From a phage, in the sequence record OZ335961.1: DNA of 64,000 nt. One strand, given 5' to 3'. A program made the translations under genes and the position numbers. The notes below the pieces were generated by a model. The model was not told the origin of the DNA, made no database searches, and was given only the letters and a program-made list of their open reading frames with translations. This document shows positions 25,335 through 32,977 of the stretch, one piece after another. Position 1 is the stretch's first letter, and every line of letters starts with the position of its first letter.

Positions 25335-25366
25335 TTATTATAACACAACACGAGGGACTTGTAAAC
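25335..25366 (-). promoter_or_regulatory. early-type sigma70 promoter (GTTTAC -35, TATAAT -10)
   Basis: Minus strand reads GTTTACAagtccctcgtgttgtgTTATAAT; near-identical block at 41306-41337. Confidence 0.5.
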
Positions 25367-27423
25367 TACATCTTGAACTTTTTAGACATTCCGTTGATGT
25401 TAACTAAAGAAGCTAAGATTTGAGAAACTTCGTTTTCCTCTTCTTTTGATTCTTCTACAAGGAATTGATTAAACCCAGCCATTAGACGAACTTCACCAGT
25501 TTCCATTAGATGATCGCCATCATATACCGATTCTTCTAATTGTTCAGAAGGAGGAACGATTGTGCCTTCGATTAGATACTTGTTATAAGCAGTTTCTTTC
25601 ATCATGTACGTGCTCACTTTATTAATCTTCAGCAAAATTCCACGCGGTAAAATAACTTCAGCTTCTGACGGAAATCCTGATAAATGACCCGGAACGATAA
25701 CTTTAATTCGCTCAGCTCCTTTAATTACCATACCCACGCTAGTTTCAGCATCTTCATTAGCATATGCAGAATGACTACCCATATGCATTAAATCTTCAGC
25801 ATCAACAGAACCTTCTCCTTCACCAGAAAATACTGCGCCGGAATCATCTAGAGACATATAGTTTTTACCATGCTCACCGAAGATATTTGGTTTAAGCGAT
25901 GTTGATACGAAGTTCTTAAAATAGAACATTTTATTTTCAATATTATGACGTAAAGTTTTAAAAGTAACTTCTTGCCCACGATAAAGCGTAGTTCCTGGAG
26001 GAAGAACTGATCCTTTGGCGAATGCAGAATCCAGCGTCTCGATGCGTTTAATAGCTCGTTCCATGTATTCTTCACGGGTAGAATCTGGTTTACCTAAGAG
26101 GAACGAGTTCATTTCAACATATGAATCTGCACAATAATCTTCAATTACATCAGACTCAGACTGAGTTAATCCTTTTGGAGTTACTTCGGTGCTTGCGTAT
26201 TCATATGCCTGAGCAGCAGATTCATTAATCAATTTATAAATGTTATTCATGACAAATTGAATAATAGCTACCTTTTCGTCTGGTGTGGCTTTAGAACCTT
26301 TAACTAAATCATTGATAATTTTCTTAATAACATCAAAGCTATTAGAAATATTAATGTCAGCGAGATCGCTTAAAATTTTATCAGTTTTATAATCAAAAAA
26401 TTCTTTATTCTTTAAATATTCTTGAGAACCTTGATATGTTATATCGCTCTGCAGCTTGATAGATGGATCACGTAAACGTGCATGGGCCAATGCAATATGA
26501 TTTCGGAAGCTTTCTAGTTCATAATCGTTAGATTTAAAACGAGAAGCACTTCTCATACCACCGATAGCTCCTTTGCTGAAGTTGGAACCAATCTGAATAA
26601 CACCAGAGTTCATTGGTCCTTCTGCTTTATATACCGGAACTTTAGATTCAAACTCTTGATATTTCTTGGCAGCGAAGCTATCACCCTGAAGTGAAGCATC
26701 GACAGTAGAATATTGAGCTTGTGCTGCTAATCGACGGCTAATTTTAGTTTTCTGAATAACAGCTTGATCCGTGCGCTTATCATTTTCTAAAGCAATAGAA
26801 GCAGCCACAGCAACGGCTTTAGGAACAGCATTACCTGTTTTAACATCTACATAAACATCACCAACCTTTGATTCAACTTTTGTGAATAACTCAGTTGAAA
26901 TAGGAGGTACACCTGGAATGTCTTCTAAATTGGCATTTTTACGGTAAACCATAATATATGCATACTTTTTATCATAATCCCAGATTTCTTTTAAAAGAAC
27001 ATATCGACCTGCTCCTTTAGTACGTACTAAACGGTCAGCAATAACTTGCATTTGACGAGCAGCGCCATTTGTTTTACTTTTTAGTACGCGGAATAGGCAT
27101 GCGTCAATTTTATACTGTTTCATTGTTTGAAGAGCAGTATCAAAAACCGCATTAATGACACCAATTGGATTTCCACCCAAGTTTTTAAGTTTAACTAATG
27201 ATAGTTTCTCATTGACACCTATCATTACGATATGCATCATTTTATCGCCTGGCTTAACGTTTTTATTTGTATCACCGCCAGAGGTGTATGTACAAAATCT
27301 AAATCCAGGAAGTACACTTTCTTCGCCGGCTTGAATAGCAAAAATTTGAGGTATTTTATGCTTAGGATTTAAGTTAACAACCGGCGCCGAAGCGCCGTCA
27401 AATAATTCTGTAATAAGTTCCAT
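25366..27423 (-). CDS. Alt-like mono-ADP-ribosyltransferase (second paralogue)
   Basis: 685-aa ORF starting MELITELFD like its neighbour; C-terminal R / STS / EAE triad (LYRGQ ... FVSTSL ... SEAEVILPRG); AAGGA RBS. Confidence 0.8.
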   Translation of the reverse strand: MELITELFDGASAPVVNLNPKHKIPQIFAIQAGEESVLPGFRFCTYTSGGDTNKNVKPGDKMMHIVMIGVNEKLSLVKLKNLGGNPIGVINAVFDTALQTMKQYKIDACLFRVLKSKTNGAARQMQVIADRLVRTKGAGRYVLLKEIWDYDKKYAYIMVYRKNANLEDIPGVPPISTELFTKVESKVGDVYVDVKTGNAVPKAVAVAASIALENDKRTDQAVIQKTKISRRLAAQAQYSTVDASLQGDSFAAKKYQEFESKVPVYKAEGPMNSGVIQIGSNFSKGAIGGMRSASRFKSNDYELESFRNHIALAHARLRDPSIKLQSDITYQGSQEYLKNKEFFDYKTDKILSDLADINISNSFDVIKKIINDLVKGSKATPDEKVAIIQFVMNNIYKLINESAAQAYEYASTEVTPKGLTQSESDVIEDYCADSYVEMNSFLLGKPDSTREEYMERAIKRIETLDSAFAKGSVLPPGTTLYRGQEVTFKTLRHNIENKMFYFKNFVSTSLKPNIFGEHGKNYMSLDDSGAVFSGEGEGSVDAEDLMHMGSHSAYANEDAETSVGMVIKGAERIKVIVPGHLSGFPSEAEVILPRGILLKINKVSTYMMKETAYNKYLIEGTIVPPSEQLEESVYDGDHLMETGEVRLMAGFNQFLVEESKEEENEVSQILASLVNINGMSKKFKM

Positions 27424-27426
27424 GAT

Positions 27427-29520
27427 TTATCCTTGAACGAACTTGTAAGGCATGTTTGCGATATCTATGCAAGACGCAATAATTCCAAGAGATGATTCTA
27501 CTTTCTGTTTAACATTTGATGAAACGAATGATGCAAAGTCAACTCTGTCTTCTATTTCAATATCACCTGTCATTGCAACTACTTCACCAGTTTCCATTAG
27601 ACGGTCACCGTCATAAATTACTGATTCGGTGAGTTCTTCCGTAGTCATAACTTCAGCTTGAATGAGTTTTGTATTATTAGATGTTGTTCCGTCATTATTA
27701 GAAGCATCAGTTATTTTATTAACTTTGACCATCAATCCGCGCGGTAGAATAACTTCAGCTTCTGTTGCTATTCCGAGACTTCCTGGATATACAACATTAA
27801 CTTTATGAGCTCCATCAATTGCCCATCCTATTTGAACTTTAACGTATTCAGGATTTTCTTTATACGCTCTTATTTCGTTTGGATTAATAGTTATTCCTTC
27901 TTCATTTTTATCAACTGTCAATTCATTACGAGCTTCTGGTTCTAAAAGACCAATACCAGCATGCGTAATTCCAAAACGTCCAAAAATGATAGGAGTTAAA
28001 GAAGTAGATACAAAATTTCTGAAATAGAACACTTTATTTTTAACTAGTGCTTCGTATATAGGAGCAGTCATACTTTGAGCACGATAAACTGTAATGCCTT
28101 CTGGTATACGATCACCATTTTCAAAAGCTGAGTCTAAGTTATTTATAGCAGATTCAATTTCTTTTTCACTCATTACATCATATCGTTCTGGATTGTAGCG
28201 GCCTAAAAGAAGATTATTGATGTCAGTATATCCTGATCCACAGTACTCTCTAATGCCGCGCTTTTGTGATGGAGTATATTTAGAACCATCACGGGCAATA
28301 GTAATATCAATCATTGGACCTGCACCAATTCCAGAAAAGCTATAAATCATTCTTTTGAGGAATTTAGTTTTTGCTGCGTTCCAGGAATTTTTAGTTATTT
28401 CTTCCCAGACTTCATCTGGCTGTCCTTTACGGGTTTTATTATGTTTATCAAGCCAAGTATCTTTATATTCTTCAAAGAATTTATTAATAGCTGCTGCATA
28501 CTTCTCTAAACATTTTATTGAAGTAGTTGGTTCATTTTTAATCGCATTAAGAATTACGTCTTTAATTTTTTCAGAAACTTCATTAACCTCACTTTTTGAA
28601 AAGAATTTATAATCATAGTGAAGTTCATCTGCGGTTCCTTCGGCAATAATTTTTGCTGCCTTAGTTTTAGAAGCTAATGAATTGATTCCAAGTTTCATTT
28701 CTTCTGCTTCGGGAATTAAAGGAGCTGTAGCAGGTTTATTGAAATTAGCTGCGGTAGATTCATACTTTTGGAATAATTCACTTTCAAATCTAGAAGATTC
28801 CAATGACTGGCTTTGTGCAATTGCTCTACGGGAAATTTTAACTTTAACGATTACAGCTTGGTCAGAACGTTTATCATTTTCTTGTGCAATAGATGCCGCA
28901 ATTGCCTCATTTTTAGTTACTTGAGCTCCAGTATCTTTATTGATATAAACATCACCGACCTTCGATTCAACTTTAGTAAAGAGCTCGGTACTAATTTCAG
29001 GAACTCCTGGGATGTCTTCTAATGATACATTTTTGCGATGTATAAGAATATATGCATACTTTTTATCGTAATCCCAGAGTTCCTTAAGAAGGACGTATCT
29101 GCCACCTGAACGACTGCGGATAAGTCTATCAGCAATAACTTGAATTTGTCGAGCTTGACCAGCAGTTTTAGACTTAAGAATACGAAGCATACAGGCATCA
29201 ATTTTATACTGGCGCATCGTCTGCATTGCAACAGTAAAAACTGAATTGATGTAATTAATTGGGCTTGGACCGAGACCTTTTAATTTAGCAATTGAACCTT
29301 TAGCGGTTAATGTAAAAGGAACAATGTGCATCATTTTATCGCCCATCTTTAAATCGCGATTAGTATCACCTCCAGATGTATAGGTACATAAACGAAAGCC
29401 TGGTTGTTCAATTGCGTCATCAACATGAACTGAAAAAATTTGCGGTATTTTCTTCTTTGGATTTAAGTTTGTAATCGGAAGAGTAGTATCTTCGTCAAAT
29501 AATTCTGTAATGAGTTCCAT
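27427..29520 (-). CDS. alt: Alt ADP-ribosyltransferase (head-packaged internal protein)
   Basis: 697/698-aa ORF (MMELITELFD; second ATG better spaced from AGAGGA); R / STS / EAE triad (VYRAQ ... FVSTSL ... TEAEVILPRG); minus-strand TATAAATA upstream. Confidence 0.85.
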   Translation of the reverse strand: MELITELFDEDTTLPITNLNPKKKIPQIFSVHVDDAIEQPGFRLCTYTSGGDTNRDLKMGDKMMHIVPFTLTAKGSIAKLKGLGPSPINYINSVFTVAMQTMRQYKIDACMLRILKSKTAGQARQIQVIADRLIRSRSGGRYVLLKELWDYDKKYAYILIHRKNVSLEDIPGVPEISTELFTKVESKVGDVYINKDTGAQVTKNEAIAASIAQENDKRSDQAVIVKVKISRRAIAQSQSLESSRFESELFQKYESTAANFNKPATAPLIPEAEEMKLGINSLASKTKAAKIIAEGTADELHYDYKFFSKSEVNEVSEKIKDVILNAIKNEPTTSIKCLEKYAAAINKFFEEYKDTWLDKHNKTRKGQPDEVWEEITKNSWNAAKTKFLKRMIYSFSGIGAGPMIDITIARDGSKYTPSQKRGIREYCGSGYTDINNLLLGRYNPERYDVMSEKEIESAINNLDSAFENGDRIPEGITVYRAQSMTAPIYEALVKNKVFYFRNFVSTSLTPIIFGRFGITHAGIGLLEPEARNELTVDKNEEGITINPNEIRAYKENPEYVKVQIGWAIDGAHKVNVVYPGSLGIATEAEVILPRGLMVKVNKITDASNNDGTTSNNTKLIQAEVMTTEELTESVIYDGDRLMETGEVVAMTGDIEIEDRVDFASFVSSNVKQKVESSLGIIASCIDIANMPYKFVQG

Positions 29521-29543
29521 CATATCCTCTCTAGTGTTTATTC

Positions 29544-31218: not shown

Positions 31219-31484
31219 TGCTCATCCTTCAAGGTTTGGTTTACAGCTCTATTATAAATCAATTCATCATTAAGCTCAGGCAAAGACCTATGATATGTAG
31301 TTCTAACTTTATTTCCTTGCATCCAATGCTTAACGTAAATGAAACCTTGCTCTACACATTTTTTAAAAATTCGTTCGTCTTTTTGAGCTCGGAATTCTGG
31401 ATTGCATCTAAAAAATTGATTTACGTGACCATAATCACGTGTAGTATTACCTTCATTTTCATAAATAGTGTGAACGACAAACAT
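31215..31484 (-). CDS. hypothetical protein (30.x cluster)
   Basis: 89-aa ORF, ATG verified by back-translation, stop/start overlaps with neighbours. Confidence 0.55.
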   Translation of the reverse strand: MFVVHTIYENEGNTTRDYGHVNQFFRCNPEFRAQKDERIFKKCVEQGFIYVKHWMQGNKVRTTYHRSLPELNDELIYNRAVNQTLKDEQ

Positions 31485-32323
31485 TAGAATGCTCCTTGAA
31501 AAATATTGTCACCACTAGTAGGTCTATTATACAAATACTCTATTCCACCAGGTTTAATGTAGTTCCATGTCTGAAACGGATGTGTCTGATATGGATGATA
31601 TAGATGATTATAAGGATTAAATCCAGGCGTTCTCCAGGTAGTGTTCCAAGGAAAAGAATCGTTTTTAATCATCTTCTCAATCACATCTTTTATAGCTTTT
31701 TCACTATCAAAACTTTCTTTATTTTCCTTTGGCGAAAAAAGCTTATTTTCTACATCATTCCATGTATAAACTCGCTGAGCAGTTTTTGGAATATTGTCAC
31801 GCTCTCCTCGAGCCATCCAATAAACAGGAACATTTAATATTTCACTCGCGTGGTCGCAGTGATGAGCGAGATCGTCAATATAACAAATTACGTTATATTT
31901 CTCTTTTGCCTTTTTGAACAGCTCTTCTTTTGAAGAATCATGACCACACATCATTACTTCTGAGAAGGCACCAGGAAAAAGAGCATTCAAATTAAATTGA
32001 CGATTCAGCAGAGCGTCAATAGAATCACCCAATGCTGTAACAGCTACAAAATTATAATCTTCTTTTAGTTTGTTAATTACGCACAGGGCATCTTTATATG
32101 GAGACAAGTAACGAATAAAATCTGATCGATTGTATTTTTCAATTAACTTGACACCAAGTTCTTCATCACAATTAAAGAGTTTACCTGGAGAAATAAATTT
32201 CTCATCTTGGATCATTTTTAAAATATGTTCTAACGGAAGATTATATTTCTGAGCAAAATAAGGAAGTCCTGATTGCCAGCTTAAACATACTCCATCAATA
32301 TCAGTTAAAATAGTAGGCTTCAT
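31484..32323 (-). CDS. HAD-like hydrolase family protein (30.x cluster)
   Basis: 279-aa ORF with N-terminal DxDG motif (ILTDIDGV) typical of HAD phosphatases. Confidence 0.6.
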   Translation of the reverse strand: MKPTILTDIDGVCLSWQSGLPYFAQKYNLPLEHILKMIQDEKFISPGKLFNCDEELGVKLIEKYNRSDFIRYLSPYKDALCVINKLKEDYNFVAVTALGDSIDALLNRQFNLNALFPGAFSEVMMCGHDSSKEELFKKAKEKYNVICYIDDLAHHCDHASEILNVPVYWMARGERDNIPKTAQRVYTWNDVENKLFSPKENKESFDSEKAIKDVIEKMIKNDSFPWNTTWRTPGFNPYNHLYHPYQTHPFQTWNYIKPGGIEYLYNRPTSGDNIFQGAF

Positions 32324-32784
32324 AGAGAGTCTCTTAATAGGTTTAACACATCAATAAATTCAGCTTCGGTTAGTATTGTATCATCTTTTGTTAGACCACT
32401 AGCCATGCTGTGCTTCAAAACTTTTCCTTTCGAGGCTTGTAACGCATCACGAAAGCCCCTATTTTGGAACGCTGCTTCAAAATATGCATTTGTGTATAAT
32501 TCTTTCCACGCCGGTGAATATCTTGAAAACGGAACTCCAAGCCAAAAGAGGGTCCCACGGTCCTGAGCTCTAGCACAAGACCTTCCAGCTTGTTGGGCGG
32601 CAAGCCCGGATAACCCAAATATACGACGTTGCTGTTCAACATTTTTCACCTTGCATCCTTGGAGGAATCCTTCGAGACCTCCAAATTGAATACCATCCAT
32701 AACGAAAGGCCATTGGGCGAAATTACTTAATGCGCATGATGGCCATTTAAAATTGCTTCTTATCTCTAGCTCAGACATTTTCAA
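32320..32784 (-). CDS. NADAR (YbiA-like) domain protein
   Basis: 154-aa ORF with LSNFAQWPF...DG...F..GCK signature resembling E. coli YbiA (FSNFA.WP..DG). Confidence 0.7.
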   Translation of the reverse strand: MKMSELEIRSNFKWPSCALSNFAQWPFVMDGIQFGGLEGFLQGCKVKNVEQQRRIFGLSGLAAQQAGRSCARAQDRGTLFWLGVPFSRYSPAWKELYTNAYFEAAFQNRGFRDALQASKGKVLKHSMASGLTKDDTILTEAEFIDVLNLLRDSL

Positions 32785-32977
32785 TACTTATAATTTCAAC
32801 ATCAGCCCAATGACCATAGCAAGGAAGACGAAATTCAACTGGCCAGTTAGGGTCCTTTTCTAATATAATAGACTCAACTTGTGGTTCTTCATGTTCATCA
32901 GTATATGGATTTTTATCTGTTACTTTATATGTGACCTTAATATACTGAATTCCAAAAATCTTATTAATTATATTCAT
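32771..32977 (-). CDS. hypothetical protein (30.x cluster)
   Basis: 68-aa ORF in operon-like array. Confidence 0.45.
   Translation of the reverse strand: MNIINKIFGIQYIKVTYKVTDKNPYTDEHEEPQVESIILEKDPNWPVEFRLPCYGHWADVEIISIENV

Follow-up and report, generated by a model that had tools for sequence, protein, structure and literature searches.

Gene 30.3 of a Tequatrovirus genome is predicted to encode an AdfN-type NADAR protein acting against DarTG1 defence

The window analysed here, a stretch of 64,000 nucleotides of the phage sequence record OZ335961.1, carries on its minus strand an open reading frame (ORF) that a first-pass annotation, made from the letters alone, had taken for a NADAR (YbiA-like) gene of possible counter-defence function. 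The window was found to be a Tequatrovirus (T4-like) genome, with the gene order of T4 from alt through gene 30 (DNA ligase), 30.1-30.9, rIII and 31. A stretch of 2.5 kb around the ORF has 97.5% identity with Escherichia phage EPIMRB01 and finds matches in 676 phage records. The order 30.8-30.7-30.6-30.5-30.4-30.3-30.2-30.1-30 is common to the window and T4, and the ORF lies within this series of small overlapping genes (30.8 to 30), upstream of DNA ligase. A scan for promoters and terminators around the locus gave nothing above shuffled expectation and was not used. The ORF, the gene and the parts of it that bear on function are as follows:

32320..32784, minus strand: the ORF as listed, 154 amino acids (aa) counted from the first TTG, a mechanical longest-ORF start at 32784
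32320..32778, minus strand: gene 30.3 (adfN), a 152-aa NADAR of the phage clade and predicted DNA ADP-ribosylglycohydrolase, with the stop TGA at 32322..32320
32671..32673, minus strand: codon of the catalytic Glu36 (GAA), invariant in a 67-sequence alignment and in all loci
32650..32652, minus strand: codon of the catalytic Lys43 (AAG), nearly invariant in the same alignment and invariant in all loci
32410..32412, minus strand: codon of His123 (CAC), the phage-clade marker, nearly invariant in the alignment and invariant in all loci
32323..32367, minus strand: C-terminal helix, residues 138-152 (helix 140-153 of the model in 154-aa numbering), with the frame intact to the T4 stop

The ORF exists as first reported, and only its length of 154 aa needs revision. 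From sequence comparison, the real start of 30.3 is most likely ATG 32778 and not TTG 32784, because T4 annotates the equivalent start and all close homologues begin there, which gives a product of 152 aa (MSELEIRS...). Against the Pfam family PF08010 (Phage_30_3, 'Bacteriophage protein GP30.3') the ORF scored E=1.6e-68, so that it is a genuine gene. The window protein is identical to T4 gp30.3 at 147 of 152 positions (97%) in a gap-free alignment with the same stop position, the five substitutions relative to T4 being R11K, Y68C, I104F, K107R and I125M. Based on the 97% identity, the synteny and the presence of all functional residues, the ORF was assigned with high confidence as the Tequatrovirus orthologue of T4 gene 30.3 (adfN), an already known gene. 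Proteins at least 99% identical to the window allele are found in 3 of 1511 phage records, and nearly all matching GenBank records label the 30.3 product 'hypothetical protein'.

The NADAR signature first noticed in the ORF is present in the window protein, where it reads L17-S-N-F-A-Q-W-P-F25, D28-G29 and F38..G41-C42-K43. An AlphaFold2 (AF2) model of the 30.3 protein, with a predicted local distance difference test score (pLDDT) of 82.8 and a predicted template-modelling score (pTM) of 0.82, has the YbiA-type alpha+beta fold of core helices with small beta-hairpins at the flanks. Comparison of the model with the PDB by Foldseek returned the three solved NADARs as the top three matches, namely E. 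coli YbiA (2B3W; E=2.8e-4, template-modelling score (TM) 0.65), the Geobacter lovleyi NADAR (8BAT; probability 0.92) and the Phytophthora NADAR (8BAU; probability 0.96); the remaining PDB matches all had E>=1.9 and are noise. The NADAR fold that had been expected is thus borne out by structure prediction. Furthermore, YbiA (2B3W) was the top PDB match of the 30.3 family profile, at E=0.041 when the profile held 10 sequences and at E=0.001 when it held 67, and both profiles align the motif SNFA-WP..DG....E..FQ..K with YbiA 'FSNFAAWPIKVDG...SEHYFQAQK'. Judged from the model, the 30.3 protein is predicted to be a minimal single-domain NADAR.

A search with the Pfam NADAR model (PF08719, DUF1768), which the first-pass annotation had proposed as a check, gave no match to the 30.3 protein even at E<=10. 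This is a false negative which reflects the sensitivity of the model and is not evidence against NADAR membership, the protein falling in the separate family PF08010. PF08719 was matched by 5 of the 54 long PF08010 family members scanned, at best with E=1.2e-6, and also by the fusion protein of viral contig L024, at E=9.5e-4. A word-indexed search for homologues gave 22 close relatives and an exhaustive profile search was needed for the wider family, by which the gp30.3 family amounts to 1459 clusters at 50% identity.

Where the core helix begins, the window protein has the catalytic Glu and Lys of NADARs, E36 and K43, at a distance of seven residues, and the two align with the E and K of YbiA 'SEHYFQAQK'. 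The same E-x6-K spacing occurs in the C7 NADAR of E. coli, whose catalytic residues are E88/K95/D171 (PMC11543638). The residue at the third catalytic position distinguishes the clades, being His in the phage clade, Glu in YbiA and Asp in DarG1 (PMC11125620, PMC11543638), and the window protein has the His of the phage clade, H123, within the predicted last beta-strand (122-125 in the 154-aa numbering of the AF2 model). None of the five differences from T4 falls in a conserved column, and position 68 is variable among distant homologues. The C-terminal helix is also of consequence, as a frameshifted RB69 allele, 15 residues shorter and devoid of this helix, is inactive (PMC11825919). In contrast to the shortened RB69 allele, the window adfN retains its full length and its catalytic residues, and on these grounds it is predicted to be functional.

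T-even resistance to DarTG1 was mapped to gene 30.3, which was renamed adfN (Johannesman et al., Nat Commun 2025, PMC11825919). In that work, mapping with chimeras, together with a deletion and its complementation, showed T4 adfN to be required for growth on DarTG1 hosts, and AdfN with E36A, K43A or a C-terminal truncation gave only partial rescue in vivo. Purified wild-type T4 AdfN strips ADP-ribose from DarT1-modified DNA whereas the E36A protein does not; the protein does not bind DarT1 and has no effect against DarTG2 (PMC11825919). In vitro, T4 gp30.3 hydrolysed ADP-ribosylated guanine and not ADP-ribosylated thymine (Toxins 2024, PMC11125620), and the T4 NADAR was inactive on ADP-ribosylated cytidine (2026 paper, PMC12945103). 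In the section from genes 26 to rnlA of a transposon-sequencing (Tn-seq) table for T4 on a DarTG1 host, insertions in 30.3 fell from 261.0 to 0.7 mean reads (log2 fold change (log2FC) -7.25, adjusted p 0), and within that range only 30.3 and 30.4 were significant (HIDEN-SEQ, bioRxiv 10.1101/2025.11.20.689424). The counter-defence role against DarT that had been suggested for the ORF therefore has an experimental counterpart in its 97%-identical T4 orthologue.

A mechanism can be proposed from these data, in which host DarT1 would attach ADP-ribose to guanine in phage DNA during infection and thereby block replication, while AdfN would hydrolyse the N-glycosidic bond joining ADP-ribose to the guanine base. 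Removal of the adduct would let replication continue, and the phage would evade the DarTG1 toxin-antitoxin defence. Catalysis would proceed via Glu36 and Lys43 contacting ADP-ribose, together with the phage-clade-specific His123 in the last strand, and the C-terminal helix would be needed for full AdfN activity. Orthology, synteny, the NADAR fold, intact catalytic residues and full length are established for the window protein, and the allele in the window, with its five substitutions, is expected to act as the T4 protein does, from which enzymatic activity and phenotype are known. The window gene is very probably adfN, a NADAR that reverses DarT1 guanine ADP-ribosylation to defeat DarTG1. The first observation is confirmed and its interpretation supported, for a gene that was already known.

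Several points weigh against this conclusion. Direct sequence searches fail to tie 30.3 to NADAR, as besides the Pfam miss a phmmer search of the 30.3 protein against the PDB gave a single spurious match, HIV-2 integrase. The substitution Y68C alters a position at which every close homologue (>=58% identity) has an aromatic residue, and a modest effect on stability or activity is conceivable. Support for this allele comes from comparison with the T4 protein, and of the work on that protein, Methods 4.2 of PMC11125620 describes a T4 gp30.3 construct of 'residues 1-208', at odds with the 152 aa of the T4 protein, so that a misprint or another phage protein may be involved. Uninfected cells are not protected from DarT1 by T4 AdfN, and its rescue of phages other than the T-even ones is weak (PMC11825919, PMC11125620), so that the picture of an enzyme that erases the damage by itself is incomplete and a T-even factor or context is required; Johannesman et al. 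ascribe the T-even dependence to a further phage factor (PMC11825919). By the same reasoning, the rescue of uninfected cells from DarT toxicity, which the first-pass annotation had proposed as a test, would probably be negative despite a correct interpretation.

Comparison with known systems places the window protein closest to AdfN(T4), that is T4 gp30.3 (PMC11825919), with which it has in common 97% identity over 152 aa, the position between 30.4 and 30.2, the residues E36/K43/H123 and the C-terminal helix, and from which it differs by the five substitutions. DarG1 (E. coli C7; Geobacter lovleyi 8BAT; Schuller et al. 2023, PMC11543638) has the same fold, the E-x6-K pair and guanine-ADP-ribose hydrolase chemistry, and was reported as the NADAR clade nearest to the phage protein (PMC11825919). 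However, the phage protein lacks the N-terminal extension of DarG1, has His at the position of its catalytic Asp, and is an orphan with no DarT adjacent, the T4 form failing to neutralise DarT1 in uninfected cells. E. coli YbiA (2B3W), the founding member of NADAR/COG3236, is the best structural match and the only significant match of the profile by sequence, and its motif SNFA-WP...DG...E..FQ..K is also present in the window protein; yet the two are 19% identical, YbiA has Glu at the third catalytic position, and its gene is chromosomal, in a LexA-controlled operon with a housekeeping riboflavin role. AdfN(Bas32), AdfN(Bas60) and AdfM (the T4 Tk.4 macrodomain) are likewise orphan, antitoxin-like ADP-ribosylglycohydrolases of phages that counter DarTG, but the Bas32 and Bas60 proteins belong to other NADAR clades and are effective without T-even infection, whereas AdfM is a macrodomain and counters the thymine-modifying DarTG2.

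The genes and junctions next to 30.3, and a frame inside it, are the following:

32771..32977, minus strand: gene 30.4, 68 aa, phrog_2042 (function unassigned in PHROG), whose stop overlaps the ATG of 30.3 by 8 nucleotides, ATGTCTGA
32415..32642, minus strand: 30.3', a 75-codon ORF nested within 30.3 in the +1 frame, for which the T4 annotation reads 'internal translation, in a different reading frame'
32320..32323, minus strand: ATGA overlap of the TGA stop of 30.3 with the ATG start of 30.2, the junction reading CTCTCTATGAAGCC
31484..32323, minus strand: gene 30.2, 279 aa, of the HAD superfamily and nearest to 5'(3')-deoxyribonucleotidases, 98% identical to T4 gp30.2

Inspection of the 30.4/30.3 junction and the sequence upstream of it revealed no Shine-Dalgarno sequence for the ATG of 30.3. 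The gene is probably translated by coupling to 30.4, because of the 8-nucleotide overlap and the lack of a Shine-Dalgarno sequence of its own. In the T4 Tn-seq table, insertions in 30.4 were partly depleted on DarTG1 (log2FC -1.79, adjusted p 0.014; HIDEN-SEQ, bioRxiv 10.1101/2025.11.20.689424). The simplest explanation, and a likely one, is polarity onto the coupled 30.3, since the ATG of adfN lacks a Shine-Dalgarno sequence and lies across the stop of 30.4. Alternatively, the role of 30.4 might go beyond that of a translational leader for adfN and extend to T-even specificity. At the other end of the gene, the ATGA overlap fits the translational coupling of 30.3 to 30.2 that had been described, and further along 30.2 and 30.1 have one base in common, in TAATG.

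The frame of 30.3' is open over 76 codons in nearly all region-covering homologues at 75-98% identity and over 61 codons in one locus, L012; in distant homologues (34-45% identity) it is not kept open. Many database entries for 30.3 itself (P0004-P0007, P0013-P0016 and P0021) are short, at 109-126 aa, or fused to domains of adjoining genes (PF11097, PF06919 or PF06019). These may be natural frameshift alleles like adfN of RB69, or artefacts of assembly or annotation.

The neighbour of 279 aa had been called HAD-like from a single motif, and this reading holds. Gene 30.2 carries HAD motifs I (DxD), II (T/S), III (K) and IV (DD) together with the fold, and among 27 homologues D8, D10, K132, D150 and D151 do not vary and T96 hardly does. 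The best PDB match of the 30.2 family profile was mouse 5'(3')-deoxyribonucleotidase (2JAO, E=0.0075). The AF2 model of 30.2 has a pLDDT of 82, with residues ~200-279 of low confidence, and gave 92 Foldseek matches at E<=1e-3, the best 50 of the 92 being all HAD-type folds; among the matches listed, the target-normalised TM of the model was highest (0.63-0.71) against 5'(3')-deoxyribonucleotidases. A Pfam scan of 30.2 at E<=10 returned no family, curated HAD and NT5C models included, and the PHROG search gave weak matches only, to polynucleotide kinase/phosphatase. The C-terminal tail of gp30.2 (residues ~200-279, ~80 aa, 31484-31725 on the minus strand) is rich in aromatic residues and proline, and its length varies, several related loci aligning to residues 1-191 only.

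Fusions of the two kinds of domain were found in some environmental phages, which is a new observation. In two viral contigs, at L023:5914-6969 and L024:3478-4440 (both plus strand), single ORFs join an N-terminal gp30.3-type NADAR to an NT5C-type HAD domain; clusters P0135, P0140 and P0250 are likewise fusions of PF08010 and PF06941, and in P0242 the NADAR is fused to another HAD-like C-terminus. The E-values of PF06941 in the fusions range from 6e-10 to 7e-15, and the domain order is the same as that of the 30.3-30.2 gene pair of T4-like phages. The fused HAD domains are distant relatives of the 30.2 family (hhalign E=5.7e-5). Around the fusion in L024 (1533-9396) there are genes for a DSP-type phosphatase, a phage lysozyme, an ADP-ribosylglycohydrolase (PF03747, E=3e-67), a metallopeptidase, a PP2C and a RelA/SpoT-like protein, a neighbourhood that appears from its sequence to be rich in ADP-ribose and signalling genes.

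These fusions bear on the question whether 30.2, a HAD protein, and the NADAR make up a conserved module of two parts working on a shared substrate, in which 30.2 would either carry out a further step in the clearing of ADP-ribosylated nucleotides or DNA or be the T-even factor of AdfN. The two genes are strictly adjacent with the ATGA overlap in the window, and the abutting arrangement is kept in 15 of the 15 T4-like loci that reach past the 30.3 stop, down to 45% identity. Furthermore, 30.3 occurs in 1511 and 30.2 in 1453 phage records with near-identical genus counts, and the dependence of AdfN on a further phage factor (PMC11825919) would leave room for a partner. However, the shared distribution may merely reflect two common Straboviridae genes, and in six phage loci of remoter relationship no HAD gene lies within 6 kb of the NADAR. 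The distant gp30.3 homologues likewise have no consistent partner gene beside them, their neighbours being various genes of DNA and nucleotide metabolism (ligase, RecJ-like, thymidylate synthase and PTH2). Catalytic aspartates are also lost from some of the fused HAD domains, L023 reading DMG and P0140 and P0250 being without DD.

In the same Tn-seq table, 30.2 (71 TA sites) was neutral on DarTG1 with log2FC -0.12 and p 0.61, whereas 30.3 was lost (HIDEN-SEQ, bioRxiv 10.1101/2025.11.20.689424). On this value, 30.2 as the missing T-even cofactor of AdfN was rejected for the DarTG1 phenotype, and any joint role of 30.2 and 30.3 must lie outside that phenotype because insertions in 30.2 are neutral there. 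Such a role might be to rid the pool of recycled nucleotides of ADP-ribosylated deoxyguanosine nucleotides, or to counter a different guanine-ADP-ribosylating defence. A module of the phage-clade NADAR and an NT5C-like HAD phosphatase, with its joint function outside the DarTG1 assay, is considered unlikely, and the two-enzyme explanation as a whole equally so.

Slightly less probable again is that the protein acts mainly on ADP-ribosylated molecules of another kind, for example guanines in RNA or soluble defence signals derived from ADP-ribose, and that reversal of DarT1 is one facet of its activity. All four NADAR families, that of T4 included, remove ADP-ribose from guanine of RNA as well as DNA in vitro (PMC12945103), and Johannesman et al. 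speculate on additional ADP-ribosylating defences (PMC11825919). Nevertheless, DarTG1 provides the sole in vivo phenotype demonstrated, no soluble substrate is known for the phage clade, and ADP-ribosylated cytidine and thymine are not substrates of the T4 NADAR (PMC11125620, PMC12945103).

The two remaining explanations concern YbiA and the Alt proteins, the latter encoded in the window by two genes:

25366..27423, minus strand: Alt paralogue, 685 aa, full length, with the PF03496 ADP-ribosyltransferase domain
27427..29523, minus strand: Alt paralogue, 698 aa, full length, with the PF03496 ADP-ribosyltransferase domain

A YbiA-like metabolic N-glycosidase that works on intermediates of the riboflavin pathway, possibly in concert with the HAD phosphatase, would suit three facts: enzymes of the YbiA family cleave riboflavin intermediates, the window protein has YbiA as its best match by both structure and profile, and one homologue of 30.2 carries the source label 'FMN phosphatase YigB'. 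Such a function is highly improbable, as the phage clade has His for the YbiA-defining Glu and clusters nearest to DarG1 and not to YbiA (PMC11125620, PMC11543638, PMC11825919), the in vivo phenotype is specific to defence in the Tn-seq data, and 30.3 is dispensable on K-12.

The two Alt ADP-ribosyltransferases reported at first are both there, as tandem paralogues 41% identical to one another, and T4 retains the second copy merely as the remnants alt.-1 and alt.-2. Alt and Mod act on arginine residues of proteins. It had been supposed that the phage possesses both the writers and a putative eraser of ADP-ribosylation. That the NADAR, whose gene stands in the same early block as the two paralogues, would tune or reverse the marks of the phage's own Alt, ModA and ModB can be dismissed as scarcely credible: NADARs are reported to act on ADP-ribosylated guanine of DNA and RNA, and some outside the phages on cytidine too, with no protein-linked ADP-ribose reported (PMC11125620, PMC11543638, PMC12945103), and alt, modA and modB insertions are given as neutral on DarTG1 in the T4 Tn-seq data (HIDEN-SEQ, bioRxiv 10.1101/2025.11.20.689424). 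There is no support for a functional link between the Alt pair and the NADAR, the writer that is countered being host DarT1.

The NADAR-HAD fusions offer a concrete but so far weak handle on the role of 30.2. For the window, the gain is one of annotation, in that a 'hypothetical protein' can be named adfN, the gene itself being already known. AdfN is the first lytic-phage case of an orphan antitoxin homologue used as an enzymatic counter-defence, and it explains the resistance of T-even phages to DarTG1.

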